From a bacterium (Candidatus Ratteibacteria) CG_4_9_14_3_um_filter_41_21 (GTDB taxonomy: Bacteria; Ratteibacteria; UBA8468), in assembly GCA_002791075.1 (NCBI GenBank), contig PFWI01000051.1:1-24613 (forward strand): a stretch of 24,613 bases of DNA. Reading direction: 5' to 3'. Numbering within the stretch: position 1 is the first letter of the stretch; the number at the start of each line of letters is the position of its first letter. Made by a program: the position numbers and the translations under genes. A model generated the notes under the pieces. It did no database searches, was not told where the DNA came from, and saw only the letters and a program-made list of their open reading frames with translations. Shown here piece by piece: positions 8,668 to 15,454 of this stretch.

Positions 8668-9138
8668 GTGGCTATTGTCTATTTGGGAATTGGAACAAAC
8701 TTGGGAAGAAGGAGAAAGAATATTGAGACCGCTTTAAGATTATTAAAAAGGAAAAAGATCAAGATTAATCAAGTTTCTTTCTTTTTTAAGACAAGACCGG
8801 AAGAAGGGGTAAAAGGCTCCTATTTTCTTAACGGTGTGGCAGAGATAGAGACAGAATTGCCTCCTCAGAAACTTTTAAAATTTCTTAAAGAGACAGAAGA
8901 GCGCCTGGGGAGAAAAATAAATCATAAAAGAAAAGAGCCGCGGACAATTGATTTAGACATTCTTTTTTATAATTCCCTTATTTTGAATGAGCCTGACCTT
9001 ATTATTCCTCATCCAGGATTTAACAAGAGAAAATTTGTTTTAAGGCCCTTGAATGAAATTGCTCCATCTTTTAAGGACCCGGTAACCAGAAAAAAGATAG
9101 AGACCCTTTTTAAAGAAAATTGTAGTGCGAGGCTTTAG
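8668..9138 (+). CDS. folK: 2-amino-4-hydroxy-6-hydroxymethyldihydropteridine diphosphokinase
   Basis: VYLGIGTNLG, FLNGVAEI, E..LGR, PRTIDLDILFY, LIIPHP, RKFVLRPLNEIAP. Confidence 0.92.
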   Translation: MAIVYLGIGTNLGRRRKNIETALRLLKRKKIKINQVSFFFKTRPEEGVKGSYFLNGVAEIETELPPQKLLKFLKETEERLGRKINHKRKEPRTIDLDILFYNSLILNEPDLIIPHPGFNKRKFVLRPLNEIAPSFKDPVTRKKIETLFKENCSARL

Positions 9139-9144
9139 CCTCGC
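9122..9144 (+). repeat. REP-like GTAG + palindrome at the folK/panC junction
   Basis: GTAGT-GCGAGGCT-TT-AGCCTCGC, 8-bp perfect stem. Confidence 0.6.
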
Positions 9145-9151
9145 TAATAGG

Positions 9152-9991
9152 ATGAAGGTCATTAAGAAAAGCAAGGAATTACAAACTCTGATAGAGAGAG
9201 AAAAGAAGAAGGGAAAGATAATTGGCCTGGTTCCCACAATGGGGTATTTGCATTCCGGACACATTTCTCTGATTAAAAGAGCAAAAAAGGATTGCGGTAT
9301 AGTTGTGGTCAGTATTTATGTCAATCCAACGCAATTTGGGCCGGGAGAGGATTACCAAAGATACCCCCGGGATTTAGAAAGGGATAAGAAATTGGCTAAG
9401 GAAGCCGGAACCGACATTCTCTTTGTTCCTTCTGACGAGGAGATTTATCCGGACTCTTTTCATACCTATATCCAGGTAGAAGAGTTATCCGGGAGATTAT
9501 GCGGTGTTTCCCGGCCGATTCATTTCCGAGGGGTTGCCACAATTGTGGCAAAATTATTTAATATTGTTAAACCGACAAAAGCCTATTTTGGGTGGAAGGA
9601 TGCGCAGCAATTGATTATTCTTAAGAAAATGGTAAAAGATTTGAATATGGATGTTGAGGTTGTTGGCCTGCCCACGGTCAGGGAGAAGGATGGTTTAGCA
9701 ATAAGTTCCCGAAATAAATATTTAAGTAAACAGGAGAGAAAGATTGCTCCCATTCTTTACCAGGCTCTGGTTAAAGCGAAAAAAATGGTAAATTCCGGAG
9801 AGAACAACAGCGCCAGGGTTTTGCAGCAAGCAAAGGATTTGATTAAAAAAAAGAAAGGAGTAAAAATTGATTATCTCAAAGCCATAAATTTAATCGATTT
9901 AAAGGATGCTAAAAAGATAAAAAAGAATACCTTAATTGCAATAGCCGCCTGGATTGGAAAAACCAGATTAATTGATAATGTAATAATTTGA
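9152..9991 (+). CDS. panC: Pantoate--beta-alanine ligase
   Basis: VPTMGYLHSGH, SIYVNPTQFGP.ED...YPR, RPIHFRGVATIVAKLF, YFG.KD.QQ, REKDGLAISSRN, TRLIDN. ATG 9152 preferred because the upstream in-frame codons are the REP hairpin. Confidence 0.96.
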   Translation: MKVIKKSKELQTLIEREKKKGKIIGLVPTMGYLHSGHISLIKRAKKDCGIVVVSIYVNPTQFGPGEDYQRYPRDLERDKKLAKEAGTDILFVPSDEEIYPDSFHTYIQVEELSGRLCGVSRPIHFRGVATIVAKLFNIVKPTKAYFGWKDAQQLIILKKMVKDLNMDVEVVGLPTVREKDGLAISSRNKYLSKQERKIAPILYQALVKAKKMVNSGENNSARVLQQAKDLIKKKKGVKIDYLKAINLIDLKDAKKIKKNTLIAIAAWIGKTRLIDNVII

Positions 9992-10013
9992 TAGTATAGG
10001 AATTCCCTTTTTC

Positions 10014-10060
10014 CCTCTCCTCAATCCTCCCCCTCGAGGGGGAGGAGATAGGTCGGGGTG
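10014..10060. repeat. C-rich/G-rich hairpin repeat, copy 2
   Basis: Perfect 20-bp palindrome CCTCCCCCTCGAGGGGGAGG at 10026-10045, just after panC. Confidence 0.75.
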
Positions 10061-10094: not shown

Positions 10095-10212
10095 GTTAAA
10101 GTTAGGTGTTAGTATTGAGGAATTGATAAAATAAATTTATGGCAAGCGTAAAATCGGTAAGAATATACAGGAGGGGGAAATTGTAGTTTCTTTCTCGTAC
10201 GATCCTAAATTT

Positions 10213-11316
10213 GTGGCTAAAGTTAAAACCATTGAGGGCCATAGGTGGCATCCGGATAAAAAGTATTGGAGCTTTCCTAATTCCAACGGAACTTTAGAAA
10301 AGATTTTAAAAGCTTTTGAAGGCGAGGAAATACATATAGACACAGCCTTACAAACTAAACTCACTTCCGTCATTGCGAGGGACGGGCTTCCTCGCTCGTC
10401 ATTGCGAGTCCCGATAAAATCGGGACGAAGCAATCTCAAGATAGGCTCGGAACAGGTTCCGCAATCTCAATTTGATGACCTTAAACGTGAACTTCTTTCA
10501 AGAAAATACAGCCATAAAACGGTCAAAGGTTATCTCTATTACAACAGAGATTTTCTGAGTTTTATAAACAAGAACCCCACTGAAGTTCAGGAAGGAGACA
10601 TAAAGGACTACCTTGTTCACCTCGCCGAAGAAAGACAGTCTGCCACGTCCACATTGAATCAGGCAATAAACGCCCTGAAGTTCTATTACGGGACCATGCT
10701 TAAGAAGAAGTTCATCTATGAAGTCGTAAGGCCGAGAAAGGACAAAATACTGCCGGAAGTCTTAAGTAAAGAAGAAGTCAGCCGCATTATAAAAAGCACA
10801 GCGAATATCAAGCACAAGGCAATTCTGATGACCATATACTCCGGTGGCCTGAGGCTTGGTGAAACAGCCCGACTGGAGCAGGCGCATCTTGACAGGGATA
10901 GAATGCTCGTCTTGGTAAAGGGAGCAAAAGGGAGAAAAGACAGGTATACACTTCTTTCCCCCAAAGCCCTGGAATTAATTGACCTGTATATTAAGCGGTA
11001 TGAACCCCGAAAGTGGCTTTTTGAAGGAGCAAAAGCAGGCAGGCATCTTTCGAAAAGGACGATAGAGAAGGTTTTCGATCAAGCCTGCGAGAGGACTGGC
11101 ATAAAGAAAGATGTGTCGGTTCATGACCTTCGGCATAGTTTCGCTACGCACTTGTTGGAATCCGGAGTTGATCTCAGATACATACAGGAACTGTTAGGCC
11201 ATGCCAGCAGTAAGACGACCGAAATATATACCCATGTCAGTACAAGGAGTTTGGGAGAAATACGAAGTCCGTTGGACAATCTCGATTTTGAAGGAGGCGA
11301 GAGTGACAAAACTTGA
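10213..11316 (+). CDS. Tyrosine recombinase/integrase (IntI/XerD-like, no IntI-specific insertion, extra N-terminal module); start uncertain
   Basis: Catalytic R (GLRLGE), K (KGAKGRKDR), HxxR (HDLRH), H (LLGH) and Y (IYTHV) intact. SAM-like domain R.YS.KT.K.Y...Q..NALKFYY. The frame stays open upstream to 10135 with no ATG. Confidence 0.92.
   Translation: MAKVKTIEGHRWHPDKKYWSFPNSNGTLEKILKAFEGEEIHIDTALQTKLTSVIARDGLPRSSLRVPIKSGRSNLKIGSEQVPQSQFDDLKRELLSRKYSHKTVKGYLYYNRDFLSFINKNPTEVQEGDIKDYLVHLAEERQSATSTLNQAINALKFYYGTMLKKKFIYEVVRPRKDKILPEVLSKEEVSRIIKSTANIKHKAILMTIYSGGLRLGETARLEQAHLDRDRMLVLVKGAKGRKDRYTLLSPKALELIDLYIKRYEPRKWLFEGAKAGRHLSKRTIEKVFDQACERTGIKKDVSVHDLRHSFATHLLESGVDLRYIQELLGHASSKTTEIYTHVSTRSLGEIRSPLDNLDFEGGESDKT
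10369..10437 (+). repeat. Palindromic GTCATTGCGAG...GAAGCAATCTC element inserted in frame in the integrase
   Basis: Two GTCATTGCGAG copies (10369, 10398), stem GTCCCGAT-AAA-ATCGGGAC (10408-10426), ending GAAGCAATCTC. Confidence 0.75.
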
Positions 11317-11400
11317 TGCAAGGAGAGAGGTTTCGCTCTTCGGATAGATGTAAAATAACCGCACCATGGTGCAGCTACAACCCCAATTTTGGGATAAATG

Positions 11401-11449
11401 TTGCACCTGAGTGCAATTGTGAACAAGTTATATGAAATTCGGCTTGGTA
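11401..11449 (+). other. attI-like recombination site / left cassette junction
   Basis: GTTATAT core at 11427. 11427-11449 is the reverse complement (22/23) of 13236-13258. 11412-11420 TGCAATTGT is the reverse complement of 13334-13342. Extra inverted repeat TTGCAC-CTGA-GTGCAA at 11401-11416. Confidence 0.7.
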
Positions 11450-11476
11450 GATTTTGTAAATTAGTGGAGATAGATT

Positions 11477-12529
11477 ATGAGAGATAAAACGAACACTTTG
11501 AGTTTATTCGGTAACGAATTGTTAATGCAGAAAGATGAGGAGAAAAAAGGTAGAACTAGCGAGAGGCTTGAGCGATTAGACCTTCATGGAGAATTACATA
11601 AAAAGATATTACCATTATGCAGGTTAAAATATGGAGATATATGGGAGGACCCAATTAATGGACATAAAGTTGGTGTATTAGATGCAACAAAACAGGAAGA
11701 TGTTAAAAAGATTGTGGGTAATGAAAAAGTCAGATTAGTTGTAAATGACCCGCCTTATAATGTAGCAGTGGGAAATGCAAATACAAACGCTCTCTTTAAA
11801 ATAAATATAGAAAAATATTTAGAGTTTTCAAAAGAATGGGTGCAAAATGTAATTTCAGTGACGGATAAAGATGCTCATTTTTATATATGGTTAGGTGCAG
11901 ATTATAGAGACAATCTTCAACCTCTTCCAGATTTTATTATCCTAATGAGAAAGTTTAAGGAATTAAGACCTAAAAATATTATTACCTTAAGAAATCAGAG
12001 AGGTTATGGAACACAAAAAAACTGGATGTGGGTCAGGCAGGAACTTCTTTATTATGTTAAAGGTAATCCAAATTTTAATGTATCTGCTGAATACACCGAC
12101 ATTCCTAAAATATTAAGAGGGTACTACAAAGAGGTAAATGGTAGGATTACAGAAAACTTGGAAAGAAGTAAATCAGAGTATATTAGGGCTGGTAATGTCT
12201 GGGTAGACATTCAGCAAGTATTCTATAGAATGGAAGAAAATGTCCCTGGTTGCTATGCCCAAAAACCTCTAAAGGCAATAGAAAGGATAATATTATCAGC
12301 GACAGATGAAAAAGATTTAGTTGTGGACTTCTTTGCTCATTCAGGAACAACCTTGATTGCTGGAGAAAGGTTAAAAAGGAAGGTTTATACATTTGATATT
12401 GACCCTATATTTGCTGAGATTACGATAAGGAGATTAGAGCATTTTAGGAGAACAGGGAAAACTGGATGGCAATGGCAAAATCCTTTCCCCCAATTGAAAG
12501 ATACAAAGGAGAGACAAAAATGGATTTAA
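11477..12529 (+). CDS. Amino-DNA methyltransferase (N6A/N4C), beta-class motif order
   Basis: Motif IV VVNDPPYN precedes motif I VVDFFAHSGTT; AQKPLKAIERII; preceded by GGAG. Confidence 0.9.
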   Translation: MRDKTNTLSLFGNELLMQKDEEKKGRTSERLERLDLHGELHKKILPLCRLKYGDIWEDPINGHKVGVLDATKQEDVKKIVGNEKVRLVVNDPPYNVAVGNANTNALFKINIEKYLEFSKEWVQNVISVTDKDAHFYIWLGADYRDNLQPLPDFIILMRKFKELRPKNIITLRNQRGYGTQKNWMWVRQELLYYVKGNPNFNVSAEYTDIPKILRGYYKEVNGRITENLERSKSEYIRAGNVWVDIQQVFYRMEENVPGCYAQKPLKAIERIILSATDEKDLVVDFFAHSGTTLIAGERLKRKVYTFDIDPIFAEITIRRLEHFRRTGKTGWQWQNPFPQLKDTKERQKWI

Positions 12530-13230
12530 AACAATTGAGACAATATTTGGAAAACCTCAGCGAGAACTTGAAACCCAAAAATCACCAATTGCTTACTGCA
12601 AGATTGGGCAGTTTAAAATCGGTTTTCCCTTTTAATGAATATGAGTACATTCTGATGTTTTTACGCGATAAAGAAATTATCACATTTCAGCAGTATGAAG
12701 AATTGAGAAAGAAATATGTATCTTCCAATCCATATTTAGAACTTTACGGGATTGCTCCTCGTACGTTTGGAGAAATATGGGGTCATCCTCATGTTATGGA
12801 TATAGATAACAGATTTAAAAAACCTAACAAGGAACTTGATTCCACTTACGAAGGCCAATATGATTTATGGTTTGAAGGTATAAAGGTAGAAATAAAAGCT
12901 TGCCGAGCAATAAATACTAAAAAGCGAGGCAATATAATGGAGAAGGCTTTAAGATACGATTCTGACGAGCCGTTTTGGATGAATTATCAACAGATTAAAG
13001 CGGATATGGCTGATGCTTTTGTTTTTATTGGTGTATGGGTAGATAAGATAGTATATTGGGTTATGTCTAAAAAAGAGATTAAGAAAAATAGATACTTGAG
13101 CCCTCAACATAGAGGGGGGATAGAATATCAAATAGGAATAACACATAAGAATATTAGCGAATTTGATGTTTACAAAGTAGAGCCGAACAAACTTGGAGAT
13201 GTAGTTCTCAAAAAGGGTAAAAGAAGATGA
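12520..13230 (+). CDS. Putative type II restriction endonuclease, PD-(D/E)XK fold
   Basis: QYDLWFEGIKVEIKACR fits PD-(D/E)XK; overlaps the MTase stop; SD AAGGAG before ATG 12520. Confidence 0.7.
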   Translation: MDLKQLRQYLENLSENLKPKNHQLLTARLGSLKSVFPFNEYEYILMFLRDKEIITFQQYEELRKKYVSSNPYLELYGIAPRTFGEIWGHPHVMDIDNRFKKPNKELDSTYEGQYDLWFEGIKVEIKACRAINTKKRGNIMEKALRYDSDEPFWMNYQQIKADMADAFVFIGVWVDKIVYWVMSKKEIKKNRYLSPQHRGGIEYQIGITHKNISEFDVYKVEPNKLGDVVLKKGKRR

Positions 13231-13235
13231 AATTG

Positions 13236-13333
13236 TACCAAGCCGAACTTCATATAACACGGTGTAAAAGACTTCGCTTCGCTCCGTCTAAATTCGGCTT
13301 TGCCGAACTTCTTTTACACCGAAACCGTTATCT
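13236..13333 (+). other. attC-like site
   Basis: R''-like ATATAAC (13252-13258), perfect 12-bp stem CGGTGTAAAAGA (13260-13271) / TCTTTTACACCG (13310-13321), inner hairpin TTCGGC-TTT-GCCGAA, R'-like GTTATCT (13327-13333). Confidence 0.7.
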
Positions 13334-13451
13334 ACAATTGCAGGCAAGGTTGGCTAATATAAAAAGAGAAAGAGTGGGGGAGAATGCTTTCAAATATAAG
13401 TAAATTTACAGAAAATATTGGGTATCCTGAAGATTTTATCAATAAAATAAA

Positions 13452-13480
13452 GTGATAAAAATGGCGAAACGGTGTATAAT
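13452..13480 (+). promoter_or_regulatory. Putative sigma70 promoter upstream of panD-lnt
   Basis: GTGATA (13452-13457), 17-bp spacer, TATAAT (13475-13480). Confidence 0.45.
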
Positions 13481-13607
13481 ACAACATAGAAGGTTTACTC
13501 TTCGGGACTAGAGCAAACGTGATAAGTCCCATTAGGCACAATGCCAGGGTTTAAAGAGAAAGAGTAAAATATTATTTCAGGAGAACTTAACTGTTACCTA
13601 TTAAATT

Positions 13608-13958
13608 ATGCAGAGAATTATTTTAAAGTCAAAGATTTCAGAGACGACTGTTACGGATACCAAACTTCATTATTCAGGCAGCATCACCATTGATGAGGGA
13701 TTAGCCGAAAGTGCGGATATTTTTCCCGGGGAAAATGTTCAGGTGCTGAATTTGAATAATGGGGCGCGAGTAGAAACTTACTACATCAAAGGAAAACGCA
13801 ATTCCGGGATTGTTTGTATCAACGGGGCGGCGGCGCGCTGGTTCGAAAAAGGGGACAAAATTATTATTCTTTCTTACGGGATTTTCGGGGACGAAGAAGC
13901 AAAAAAATTCAAACCGAAAATTATTAGAGTTGATGAAAAGAACAGGGAGATAGAGTAG
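13608..13958 (+). CDS. panD: Aspartate 1-decarboxylase proenzyme
   Basis: [18 protein letters not shown] self-cleavage site, [26 protein letters not shown]. Confidence 0.93.
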
Positions 13959-13963
13959 GGGTA

Positions 13964-15454
13964 ATGAAAAAGAGCATATTCTTCTCCATCCTCTCTGGTT
14001 TACTCCTCATTCTTGCCTTTCCTAAATTTGACTGCGAAATCGTAGCCTGGTTTGCTTTAATTCCCCTTTTTCTGGCGATCCGTGATTTTCGGTATTCTTT
14101 CTTTTCAGGTTATCTCTTTGGTCTCATCTTTTTCGGAGGAAGCCTTTTCTGGCTCGCCAATGTTACCCGAATAGGTTTTCTCGTCTTGATTCTTTATCTT
14201 TCCCTATATCCCGGGCTCTTTGCCTTTCTTTTCACTAAATGGAATCTTCCGGCTAAAAATTTTTTTGGCGCAGGGCTCTGGATTCTTTTAGAATACGTTG
14301 AAAGTCATTTCCTTACCGGTTTCCCCTGGTTGCTTCTGGGATACTCTCAATATAAAAATTTAAGATTTATTCAAATTTCCTCAATTTTTGGCGCCTACAT
14401 TGTCTCTGGTCTTGTTGTGCTGATTAATATCGGTTTAAGCCAACTTTTCTTCAAACAGAAAAAGAGCATCGCAACAAAAATGCCGAAGGTTTCCATTGCT
14501 TTGTCCTTTTTTATCCTTTTACTCGCTTTCTTTTTTGGCATTGGTCAAATGAAAAAGATTTCCGGAATTACCGCAAAAGAGATAAAAGTATCGTTGGTTC
14601 AGGGCAATATTCCTTCGCTTCAGAAATGGGAAACTTTCTCCAAAGAAAAAAATATCAAGATTTATTCTGCCCTCACCGAAAAAGCAGCCAAAAATAATCC
14701 TGATCTGGTTATCTGGCCGGAAAGCGCGATTAGTACCTATTTGAAATTGGACCGACCAATCCAAAAGCGTCTTTTTGAATTAGCCAAAGCAAAGAAATTT
14801 TATCTTCTCGCCGGTTCGTTGGACCAACGAAGCGGCAAAAACTATAATAGCGCTTTTTTAATTTCTCCTCAGGGACGAATCAAGGATACTTATGACAAGA
14901 TTCATCTGGTTCCTTACGGAGAATATGTTTTAGGGGGAGAATCTTTCCCTTTCCTGAAAAGGTTTGTGGCGAAAGCGGCTGGTTTTATTCCTGATTTTAG
15001 TCCAGGAGAAAATTACACAATCTTCTCTTTACCTGAAGGAAATTTTGCTACTTTAATCTGCTTTGAGGATATTTTTTCGGAACTTTCCCGAAGATTTACT
15101 AAAAAAGGAGCAAACTTTTTGGTTAATATTACTGATGATAGTTGGTTTGGGGATTTTGGCGCTTCTCAGCATTTTGCCGCTGCTGTTTTCCGGGCGGTAG
15201 AAAATAGGAGATATCTTCTACGGACCGCAAACACCGGGCTTTCAGCTATTATTGCTCCCTGGGGGGAAATCTTAAAAAAAGTAGAGGAAAATGGTAAAAA
15301 ACTCTTTGTCTCCGGTTTCTTGGTTGGGGAAATTAAGCCGGTTTCCTCTTTAAGTTTTTATACTAAATTTGGCGATGCTCCTTTAATTCTTCTTTGTATA
15401 GGATTGATCGTTGTTTTAATTACCACGAAATTACGAAAATTAAACAAGTTATAA
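13964..15454 (+). CDS. lnt: Apolipoprotein N-acyltransferase
   Basis: Multi-TM N-terminus, TGFPW.LLGYSQ, VQGNI, nitrilase triad WPES / YDKIHLVPYGE / LICFED, NITDDSWFG, RTANTGLSA. Confidence 0.95.
   Translation: MKKSIFFSILSGLLLILAFPKFDCEIVAWFALIPLFLAIRDFRYSFFSGYLFGLIFFGGSLFWLANVTRIGFLVLILYLSLYPGLFAFLFTKWNLPAKNFFGAGLWILLEYVESHFLTGFPWLLLGYSQYKNLRFIQISSIFGAYIVSGLVVLINIGLSQLFFKQKKSIATKMPKVSIALSFFILLLAFFFGIGQMKKISGITAKEIKVSLVQGNIPSLQKWETFSKEKNIKIYSALTEKAAKNNPDLVIWPESAISTYLKLDRPIQKRLFELAKAKKFYLLAGSLDQRSGKNYNSAFLISPQGRIKDTYDKIHLVPYGEYVLGGESFPFLKRFVAKAAGFIPDFSPGENYTIFSLPEGNFATLICFEDIFSELSRRFTKKGANFLVNITDDSWFGDFGASQHFAAAVFRAVENRRYLLRTANTGLSAIIAPWGEILKKVEENGKKLFVSGFLVGEIKPVSSLSFYTKFGDAPLILLCIGLIVVLITTKLRKLNKL

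Follow-up and report, generated by a model that had tools for sequence, protein, structure and literature searches.

Organization of the locus

The window analysed here, a 24,613-nucleotide stretch of contig PFWI01000051.1 from an aquifer bacterium (Candidatus Ratteibacteria), carries a platform of 3.5 kb between panC and panD. In relatives, the panC-panD gap is ~40 bp and the recombinase gene is absent. The platform opens with a gene for an Xer/IntI-like tyrosine recombinase (10213–11316, plus strand; 367 aa; PF00589 and PF13495), which has the same orientation as the cassette. An attI-like insertion site (11357–11431, plus strand) comes next, made up of a dyad (11359–11374), CCCCAATTTTGGG (11381–11393), a further dyad (11400–11417) and then GAACAA-GTTAT, with the crossover at G11427/T11428. 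In 10 other loci, a homologous recombinase gene is followed immediately on its 3' side by the same architecture; compared with these, AGTT is invariant and divergence begins after GTTA. Four contigs (L023, L029, L124 and L125) stop at the attI-like site (...AAGTTA). Within the same species, cassette A, which is the one in the window, and cassettes B and C are each found right after it. As in integrons, the insertion site adjoins the integrase gene and the crossover lies in GTT. A 99-bp inverted pair sharing ACAAGTTAT with the attI-like site was also considered and set aside, as it consists of two copies of a high-copy dispersed repeat; it is not counted here as part of the element.

The cassette cargo is a type II restriction-modification (R-M) pair. 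A DNA methyltransferase of the N6_N4 class (11477–12529, plus strand; PF01555, 3.6e-28; PADLOC MTase_II, 4e-27) is followed by a restriction endonuclease (12520–13230, plus strand; 236 aa; PADLOC REase_II PDLC03414, 4e-47), whose ATG at 12520 overlaps the methyltransferase stop. Homologues of the endonuclease number 989 and are typically 236 aa long, with the methyltransferase always adjacent in the loci read. Every cassette observed at the locus is an R-M system.

The downstream crossover point (GTTAT, 13327–13331, plus strand) closes a unit of 1,900 bp and opens a constant terminal segment that reaches panD (13327–13607, plus strand). This segment begins with GTTATCTACAATTGCAGGCAAGG, which matches the start of cassette B at 19/23 positions, comes after cassettes A, B and C alike, and is missing between panC and panD in relatives of the family. 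A search within 13327–13607 for an attC-like site of its own found none. The terminal segment is probably a fossil cassette.

A recombination site split between the two cassette ends

The first-pass annotation had reported a near-perfect 23-bp complementarity of the cassette ends and a direct GTTAT repeat 1,900 bp apart, and both were reproduced. By direct reading, 11427–11449 (GTTATATGAAATTCGGCTTGGTA) and 13236–13258 (TACCAAGCCGAACTTCATATAAC) are reverse-complementary at 22/23 positions, the sole mismatch being A11437 opposite C13248, and GTTAT stands at 11427–11431 and again at 13327. A repeat search lengthens the arms to 29 nt at 90% (11427–11455 and 13230–13258). With at most one mismatch, the best inverted repeat within 11000–14000 is 23 nt long, compared with a mean of 13.7 and a maximum of 17 in 300 dinucleotide-preserving shuffles of that segment.

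The two arms of this inverted repeat are the halves of one long outer stem in a hairpin recombination site. Its 3' half, the R' arm (11427–11455, plus strand; core of 23 nt at 11427–11449), stands at the cassette start and contains A11437, the conserved position-11 A. Its 5' half, the R'' arm (13230–13258, plus strand), ends in AAC and carries C13248. The inner part of the attC-like site (13259–13326, plus strand) comprises an unpaired A13259, a perfect inner stem of 12 bp (13260–13271 with 13310–13321), a variable loop containing a small hairpin (13293–13307), and an unpaired 5-nt spacer, AAACC (13322–13326). The loop of the cassette site is asymmetric (1 x 5 nt), and extrahelical bases are absent. 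The site shows the AAC/GTT pair and can fold, but ATATAAC and GTTATAT match the R''(RYYYAAC)...R'(GTTRRRY) consensus only in part. When the cassette end and start are joined, the bottom strand folds at −38.5 kcal/mol (z = −10.3) and the top strand at −33.4 kcal/mol (z = −8.6; DNA parameters), so that the bottom strand is more stable by 5 kcal/mol, whereas the site as integrated folds at only −19.8 and −17.6 kcal/mol.

A pairing rule shared across the family

A direct inverted-pair search, seeded with 14 nt and at most two mismatches, and controlled with other triplets, shuffled partners and classical arrays, gave a census of 57 cassettes from 33 loci in many phyla. In each, the cassette start is complementary to the cassette's own bases that end in AAC before the inner hairpin. 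The outer stems have a median of 16 bp and a range of 9–29 bp, with 15–19 bp as the rule, in a denominator that is biased because the seed itself demanded 14 nt with no more than two mismatches. Beyond the 14 selected nucleotides, pairing is 89% at position 15 and ~60% at positions 16–17, compared with 20–38% for shuffled partners. The rule holds throughout contiguous arrays (6/6 cassettes in L043, 5/5 in L056 and 4/4 in L052). The arm sequences vary from cassette to cassette while the pairing is kept, and in the lineage of cassette A position 22 shows a compensatory change, being T/A in the window and C/G elsewhere. At position 11, 47 of the 57 cassettes have A, rather than G, facing a C, which gives A·C in the top strand and G·T in the bottom strand; every one of 11 first cassettes has A at +11. 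All 24 related sites with readable geometry have 1–3 unpaired nucleotides on the 5' side and 3–7 on the 3' side, the latter being exactly 5 nt in 17 of them, and 11 show the same 1 x 5 arrangement.

In arrays beside full-length IntI genes, recognisable pairs match over 7–9 bp (exceptions: one of 12 bp with one mismatch and one of 13 bp with two), and 294 kb contained no cassette-end pair of at least 16 nt; this sample of classical arrays is small and attC detection in it is noisy. An energy-based attC finder, with constrained folding of every AAC...GTT pair, returned many false sites and missed most of the AT-rich true ones; its output served solely to read the recognisable GTTAGGC-type pairs in classical arrays.

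The long outer stem is a family trait and not a mark of recency, since it is family-wide and is kept, with compensatory change, in diverged orthologous cassettes. Of the earlier proposal that the long stem marks a recent or still mobile cassette, mobility is borne out by the population data given below; recency is not, the stem being general in the family. In the open-access literature, no description of a split long stem or of the position-11 signature was found. New here are this signature and the population-level evidence of shuffling.

Cassette exchange in natural populations

The first reading of the sequence had suggested that the cassette begins with the R' part of its own attC and that the same methyltransferase and endonuclease pair might be sought with the same ends in a different context. 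The search was positive in four loci (L106, L108, L109 and L110). R-M pairs sharing the cassette ends have endonucleases that are 85–90% identical in amino acid sequence. The cassette ends recur behind a different attI-like site in L106, within another array in L110, ahead of another cassette in L108 and stranded beside dnaX in L109; they are also present in L154.

In the aquifer population, an identical cassette occupies several array positions, and at least eight array arrangements occur among the contigs, all of which switch exactly after GTTA(T). In contigs of the same species, the site of cassette A is followed by the terminal segment, B, C or D, with identical sequence up to GTTA(T); four different sequences follow the 13327 point. 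The same cassette is therefore seen in different arrays and positions with the same boundaries, as in integrons. Logan contigs break at 11427–11431 and at 13326–13332. In four runs, the right-flank contigs begin at 13326 and the depth of the cassette contig is 0.31–0.5 of that of the flanks. These observations support the view that 11427–13326 behaves as a cassette whose first bases are part of its own recombination site.

A single-cassette circle (or a tandem A-A) would join ...CACCGAAACC to GTTATATGAAATTC, and an empty attI-terminal junction would join ...GTGAACAA to GTTATCTACAATTG. Neither junction was found in Logan contigs or, by exact search, in JGI metagenome contigs, that is, in assembled contigs, where rare forms seldom appear. 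Contig L115 was considered as a circular contig and rejected, as its ends do not overlap; a C-A junction needs no circle, because attI-C arrays exist. Genome G104, flagged as unpublished, was left out.

Cassette C of the same locus changes position despite a weak proximal outer stem, with matches at ~8 of its first 11 positions. Two alleles of its start occur, GTTAGGC and GTTATCC, and an exchange region of ~6 nt fits these better than exchange at a single point.

An Xer-like recombinase

The recombinase carries an extra N-terminal region of ~87 aa. It matches NF040815, which NCBIfam names 'site-specific tyrosine recombinase/integron integrase', at 227 bits against a cut-off of 220. The match to TIGR02249 reaches 205 bits, under the cut-off of 265, and is split in two stretches; the protein skips positions 179–234 of the model, where 15 codons stand instead. 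This gap pattern recurs in four homologues from other phyla, in contrast to a full-length IntI (genome G064) with a contiguous match of 416 bits. Compared with 2A3V, 26 residues are found in place of 68, and the additional IntI-specific domain around patch III is absent, whereas the alignment with XerA (5HXY) is contiguous from end to end. The recombinase is Xer-like and lacks the IntI-specific insertion, and the element is not a classical integron. The usual integron setting assumed in the first-pass annotation is at odds with this gene and with the 1 x 5 nt loop devoid of extrahelical bases.

Xer enzymes act in chromosome dimer resolution at a single duplex 11-6-11 site. Xer/dif and XerA (PDB 5HXY, 4A8E) are the best contiguous structural-sequence match to the catalytic and core-binding domains. 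Unlike the gene of an Xer enzyme, the recombinase gene here is an insertion missing from relatives and adjoins variable cassettes.

Comparison with known cassette systems

The element resembles classical integrons, including chromosomal ones with a co-oriented intI and archaeal ones, in several respects. In both, a tyrosine recombinase gene adjoins the insertion site; in archaeal integrons, attI directly follows intI (Ghaly et al., 2022; PMC9668308). Cassettes are bounded between the G and the TT of GTT, and each has an imperfectly palindromic site that ends in AAC...GTT and takes in the cassette's own first bases. Insertion at attI and reordering occur, and defence genes are among the cargo. 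The differences lie in the recombinase, which has no IntI-specific insertion and has an extra N-terminal region, and in the site. Where classical integrons have a 7-bp R box, a roughly symmetric unpaired spacer and extrahelical bases (PMC8946536), the outer stem in this family is 15–29 bp long and the spacer 1 x 5 nt; the inner stem has no extrahelical bases, and a fixed A·C / G·T imperfection lies 11 bp out instead.

A likeness in layout also exists with rAID-1 elements. In the accessible part of their description, these are defined by a 5' XerD-like recombinase, at least two co-directional downstream genes and repetitive intergenic sequences (Ross et al., 2019; 10.1101/471110), with a recombinase at least 44% identical to BF9343_RS08045 and interbacterial immunity cargo. 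An XerD-like 5' recombinase, co-directional genes and repetitive intergenic sequences are all found here. The host is an aquifer bacterium from another phylum than the Bacteroidales, in which rAID-1 cargo confers immunity against type VI toxins, whereas the cargo here consists of R-M systems. That part of the account was found to describe neither a crossover point nor a split outer stem, nor a signature at position 11. Another close parallel is the subgroup of simple tyrosine recombinases called 'integron-like' by Smyshlyaev et al. (2021; PMC8138268); in the accessible part of that study, no cassette system or site was found attached to the members without the insertion.

Proposed mechanism and alternatives

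The analysis shows where the cassette begins and ends, that the pairing rule is family-wide and that cassettes are shuffled in the population; the single-stranded substrate, the choice of strand and the protein contacts are inferred. We contend, with a probability of roughly three in four, that the locus is an integron-like platform with one split-site R-M cassette, the arms of which pair on excision or single-stranding and are read by an Xer-like enzyme. Counting against this are the missing circle and empty-site junctions in the contigs and the mobility of cassette C with its weak stem and two start alleles. The cassette runs from just after G11427 to G13327, and integration splits its recombination site and leaves the R' arm (11427–11449/55) at the start and the R'' arm (13230/36–13258), inner hairpin and 5-nt spacer at the end. 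On circular excision, or on single-stranding of the joined site, the arms would pair into an outer stem of 23–29 bp atop the 12-bp inner stem, placing the cleavage point AAC/GTT between the two stems, beside the 1 x 5 nt asymmetric loop. The Xer-like recombinase, as the candidate enzyme, may read this fold as if it were a duplex core site, with the outer stem providing one binding arm of ~11–13 bp plus an extension and the inner stem supplying the second. The imperfection at position 11, A·C in the top and G·T in the bottom strand, 11 bp from the G of GTT, might favour the bottom strand and so stand in for the extrahelical bases read by the IntI insertion in classical integrons. It is a more tentative, rather doubtful proposal that insertion-less recombinases in general read folded sites differently, by a full-length outer-stem arm and a position-11 signal for strand choice, possibly via the N-terminal domain, in place of extrahelical bases and the I2 helix.

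The main competitor, which we regard as improbable, is a double-stranded Xer/dif-style reaction, with duplex or cruciform sites, two exchanges 6–8 bp apart and the arms serving as protein-binding arms. It agrees with a recombinase that aligns whole with XerA and has no domain for reading a folded attC, with the putative dyad binding sites in attI, and with the start alleles of cassette C, as GTTAGG and GTTATC resemble segregants of a ~6-nt heteroduplex. Removal of the cassette also leaves an imperfect palindrome, TGCAATTGT-N13-ACAATTGCA; as a dedicated duplex target, however, this candidate is weakened, because its right half ACAATTGCA belongs to a cassette-like start that is also found in cassette B and in cassettes at other loci. 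In the circle, moreover, the arms would lie 68 nt apart around a second conserved hairpin, and a strand-asymmetric imperfection at position 11 would be meaningless in a plain duplex. Only the pairing and not the arm sequence is conserved between cassettes, which argues for recognition of structure.

A somewhat less probable, and in our view unlikely, explanation is an ordinary integron cassette whose long outer stem reflects recent capture or mobility, with older cassettes losing their pairing. The polymorphism and shuffling of the cassette fit this, as does a stem of 23–29 bp at the long end of the family range. Against it, stems of 15–19 bp are usual in the family, the A-lineage stem is kept with compensatory change in orthologues at 85–90% endonuclease identity, cassette C is as mobile with a poor stem, and the recombinase is not an IntI. 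That a 23-bp inverted repeat flanks both genes would also suit the terminal repeats of a small transposon or MITE with R-M genes, yet there is no transposase and no target duplication beside the arms, the right arm stops 68 nt short of 13327, where the mobile unit really ends, and arrays that adjoin a tyrosine recombinase gene follow the same rule whatever their cargo, so this origin is extremely improbable. The chance of an RNA-level feature, in which the R-M transcript would pair its 5' untranslated end with its 3' one, or of coincidence, is similarly negligible: both arms do lie in untranslated flanks of the operon, but the sense strand has the A·C mismatch and the antisense the wobble pair, the rule is independent of cargo, and shuffles reach 17 nt at most.

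Implications for cassette recognition

Integrons are defined by an integrase insertion that is held essential for the recognition of folded attC sites. At this locus, a recombinase with no IntI insertion sits where cassettes demonstrably exchange in a natural aquifer population. The imperfection at position 11 is a concrete mutation target for studying strand choice without the IntI domain. The pairing also provides a computable rule, namely a cassette start that has A at position 11 and is complementary to the 15 or more bases, ending in AAC, that precede the cassette's own inner hairpin. With this rule, such cassettes can be delimited in metagenomes and no covariance model is needed. If insertion-less recombinases do read folded sites differently, single-strand cassette capture would be older than the IntI insertion, or would have been invented more often. 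This would also explain arrays scored as integrase-less by integron finders in CPR bacteria, DPANN archaea, Bacteroidota, Bacillota, Spirochaetota and Nitrospirae-like bacteria. Many homologues of the recombinase of the window come from Bacteroidota.

Cassette ends and locus

The R' arm at the start of cassette A, the restriction-modification (R-M) unit of the window (11427-11449, GTTATATGAAATTCGGCTTGGTA), and the R'' arm near its end (13236-13258, TACCAAGCCGAACTTCATATAAC) pair at 22/23 positions, with A11437 opposite C13248 as the sole exception, and with mismatches the pairing reaches 29 nt at 90% (11427-11455/13230-13258). The longest inverted repeat with ≤1 mismatch within 11000-14000 is 23 nt, against a mean of 13.7 and a maximum of 17 in 300 dinucleotide-preserving shuffles of that segment. 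GTTAT stands at 11427 and again at 13327, 1,900 bp apart. Both the pairing and the direct repeat, as claimed by the first-pass annotation, were confirmed by direct reading.

Between the arms lie a Type II methyltransferase (11477-12529, PF01555) and a Type II restriction enzyme (12520-13230, PADLOC REase_II 4e-47), and directly upstream, on the same strand, is a tyrosine recombinase of 367 aa (10213-11316, PF00589 and PF13495). Given that panC (9125-9991) and panD (13608-13958), which flank this block, are only ~40 bp apart in two genomes of the host's family, roughly 10096-13600 is an insertion. A constant segment before panD (13327-13607) has a cassette-like start, 19/23 identical to that of cassette B from the same locus, and comes after cassettes A, B and C alike; an attC-like site of its own was looked for in this segment and none was found, and the segment is probably what remains of the first cassette as a fossil. 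Just after the panC stop, 9994-10060 is a repeat-like insert with the start TATAGGAATTCCC and the palindrome CCCCCTCGAGGGGG (compare L014:700-850), and the terminus TATAGGAATTTC also occurs in the panC-panD spacer of a relative (G003), alongside an IS-like transposase fragment. Small mobile DNA appears to have a hotspot in this spacer.

Insertion site and cassette contexts

Directly 3' of homologous recombinase genes there is a conserved attI-like site, which consists of a dyad, CCCAAATTTGG, a second dyad and then GAACNAGTTA, beyond which the sequences diverge; its AGTT is invariant. The same architecture is seen in the window at 11357-11431, and two contigs (L023, L029) end at the site or just past its end.

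A search with the restriction enzyme of cassette A gave 989 homologues and, among the 120 matches listed, many of the closest are on ~2-kb contigs. R-M pairs whose restriction enzyme is 85-90% identical share with cassette A the start GTTATATGAAATTCGGCTTGG, as well as GCCAAGCCGAACTTCATATAAC ahead of the inner hairpin. They are located behind a different attI-like site (L106), at a later place in an array, where an EcoRV-like R-M cassette precedes them (L110), ahead of another cassette (L108), and stranded beside dnaX, where the downstream GTT has decayed (L109), so that the search for a similar gene pair with the same ends in another context, suggested by the first-pass annotation, was successful. 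At outer-stem position 22 the window has T/A where the related copies have C/G, a compensatory change, and the inner stems vary among these copies, co-varying too. Cassette A moves as a unit, and its ends are precisely 11427 and 13327.

Shuffling in the aquifer population

Contigs encoding the identical recombinase or restriction enzyme, recovered from many aquifer and groundwater samples, are identical as far as GTTA(T) and different thereafter. The attI-like site is followed by cassette A in the window, by cassette B (methyltransferase, R.Pab1-like and Eco57I-like; L121-L123, cassette at L121:5248-7929) or by cassette C (293-aa protein and methyltransferase; L155, cassette at L118:1592-3405). 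The site of cassette A is followed by the constant terminal segment (window, L111, L112, L119), cassette B (L113), cassette C (L114-L116, L118, L120) or cassette D (L117), and junctions into A come from C (L115) and from a NOV_C-domain protein cassette (L154:1-1237). Two Logan contigs (L124, L125) terminate at ...GAACAAGTTA. When contigs of four sequencing runs were placed on 10900-13700, breaks were found at 11427-11431 and 13326-13332, and depths of left flank, cassette and right flank were 155/48.6/105, 144/~45/148, 13.5/6.9/14.5 and 32/11-17/27; the lower cassette depth places the cassette in roughly 1/3-1/2 of cells. The several array orders switching at GTTA(T) support the earlier claim that the cassette is still mobile. 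All cassettes with assignable cargo at the locus are R-M systems (cassette D and the NOV_C cassette being outside this count); the locus acts as a store in which restriction systems are reshuffled.

The circular junction predicted by the first-pass annotation did not appear in the assembled Logan (four runs) or JGI contigs, which showed neither a single-cassette circle junction nor an empty attI-terminal junction. One joint, running from 13326 through AACATTAAAC to 11427, occurs in two runs (X10, depth 12.8; X3, depth 2.6); 10 extra letters lie between the end of an attC-like site and the cassette start, and the joint matches neither the simple circle junction nor any recovered array junction.

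The outer-stem rule

In arrays 3' of homologous recombinases, the cassette start complements the bases ending AAC just before the cassette's own inner hairpin. A census requiring 14 nt with ≤2 mismatches plus an inner hairpin yielded 57 distinct cassettes at 33 loci, with a median stem of 16 (range 9-29). Because this census was seeded by the feature counted, the share of cassettes obeying the rule is known only for three contiguous arrays, in all of which it is complete: 6/6 in a finished Desulfitobacterium genome (L043), 5/5 in L056 and 4/4 in L052. Position 15, the first outside the 14-nt selection, is paired in 89% of cases and positions 16-17 in ~60%, against 20-38% for shuffled partners. 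Arm sequences are free to vary at positions 5-7 and 12-17, and the conserved feature is thus the pairing. The window's stem (23-29 bp) is at the top of the census range, along with its L110 orthologue. An exception at the window's own locus is cassette C, in which about 8/11 first positions match proximally and an inverted repeat of 16 + 9 nt is shifted 84 nt upstream. A long outer stem is thus the rule in this family and does not mark recency, and the suggestion of a recent cassette that had been drawn from it is not supported.

Stem mismatches concentrate at position 11 (numbering starts at the G of GTT), with A in the cassette start and G in the R'' reverse complement in 47/57 cassettes; position 10 is also A vs T in 11-13 of these, and the position-11 A is invariant among 11 aligned first cassettes. 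This imperfection is an A·C mismatch on the top strand and a G·T wobble on the bottom strand, and the window's reconstituted site folds at -38.5 kcal/mol (bottom) and -33.4 (top). The geometry between the stems is conserved, with 1-3 unpaired bases after AAC (usually a single A) and 4-7 before GTT (mostly five, RRAAC-like).

The recombinase and known systems

With 227 bits the recombinase clears the cut-off (220) of NCBIfam NF040815 ('site-specific tyrosine recombinase/integron integrase'), and it falls below that of TIGR02249 (205 bits vs 265), with a match split in two pieces: in the DNA, only 15 codons separate the matches to model positions 3-178 and 235-315. It has 26 residues in place of 68 in VchIntIA (2A3V), and aligns end to end with XerA (5HXY). 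Homologues of Altiarchaeum, a spirochaete, Desulfitobacterium and Thermodesulfobacterium have the same two-piece pattern, whereas the full-length IntI of a Nitrospirae MAG (G064) has a contiguous TIGR02249 match (416 bits). Residues 1-87 form an extra N-terminal region kept in homologues. Judged by its sequence, the window's recombinase is not a classical integron integrase. Its gene was sought in three same-family genomes and not found, and it is rare in the class (5/60 relatives, three at 36-40% identity, and the two closest, at 60-66%, at contig ends). Homologues at 40-66% identity, many near contig ends, occur in Nitrospirae-like bacteria, DPANN and other archaea, Spirochaetota, Bacillota, Bacteroidota and others.

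The kind of system is already known; to it the present analysis contributes a pairing rule put in numbers, a signature at position 11 and, for one locus, direct evidence from the population that cassettes are shuffled. The classical R box is 7 bp (PMC8946536), in contrast to the window's outer stem. Sampled classical arrays agree: 16 further regions beside IntI genes above cut-off were taken from one class of Proteobacteria-like genomes, and in them the GTTAGGC-type pairs that could be recognised match over 7-9 bp (exceptions 12 bp with 1 mismatch and 13 bp with 2), and no GTT...AAC pair of 16 nt was found at a cassette end in 294 kb of classical regions, a small sample with noisy site detection. 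At the full-length IntI of G064, a divergent classical cassette has a start/end match over 8 bp and a spacer of 5/6 nt. That MAG, the genome of L019 and L024 (loci at C64:19392-20342, C75:60556-61365 and C49:302-1105), carries the full-length IntI (412 bits) with a short-R-box cassette as well as two or three recombinases that lack the insertion and have long-stem cassettes, and both systems therefore coexist in one genome bin. Archaeal integrons have attI immediately downstream of intI, and their integrases are said to carry an additional domain (Ghaly et al., 2022; PMC9668308), which the window's recombinase lacks. An 'integron-like' subgroup of simple tyrosine recombinases is distinguished by Smyshlyaev et al. 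(2021; PMC8138268). For rAID-1 of Bacteroidales (10.1101/471110), the description is of a 5' Xer-like recombinase, an array of genes in the same direction and repetitive sites between them, an overall architecture common to rAID-1 and the window-type arrays.

Proposed mechanism

The folded site may mimic the duplex core site of a Xer-like enzyme. The outer stem would then serve as one full-length binding arm and the inner stem as the other, with AAC/GTT and the 1 x 5 loop as the central region, and the imperfection at position 11, which lies one helical turn away from the point of cleavage, could steer use to the bottom strand. Strand bias in classical integrons is provided by extrahelical bases read by the IntI insertion, which the window's recombinase does not have. 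The main rival is exchange between duplexes or of two strands, which is retained on account of the start alleles of cassette C: GTTAGGC and GTTATCC head otherwise identical sequence, and of four contexts two have the start GTTAGGCGACAT and two the start GTTATCCGACAT (L155:3230-3260, L154:3230-3260, L118:1340-1370, L157:3030-3060). The two alleles look like a mosaic from exchange about 6 nt past the G, resembling segregation of a ~6-nt heteroduplex, which argues against a pure single-point, single-strand exchange.

Further repeats in the host genome

A stranded attC-like 3' half, ...CCAAATTGCCTTCGGTAAACTTCTTTTACACCGAGGAC ATTAT..., is located elsewhere in the host genome (C147:1129-1184; L008:1120-1190) between ORFs of 138 and 178 aa, the latter of which we take, from its N-terminal sequence only, to be putatively shikimate-kinase-like. 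No matching 5' arm was found for this half, a probable fossil cassette end. The 99-bp inverted pair at 15444-15542/23169-23267 represents two copies of a high-copy dispersed repeat, with about 45 full or near-full copies in the 1.46-Mb MAG, many of them at contig ends. The hairpin AACCACGAATT...AATTCGTGGTT is part of this repeat, whose opening 9 nt, ACAAGTTAT, are identical to the crossover region of attI, perhaps by coincidence.
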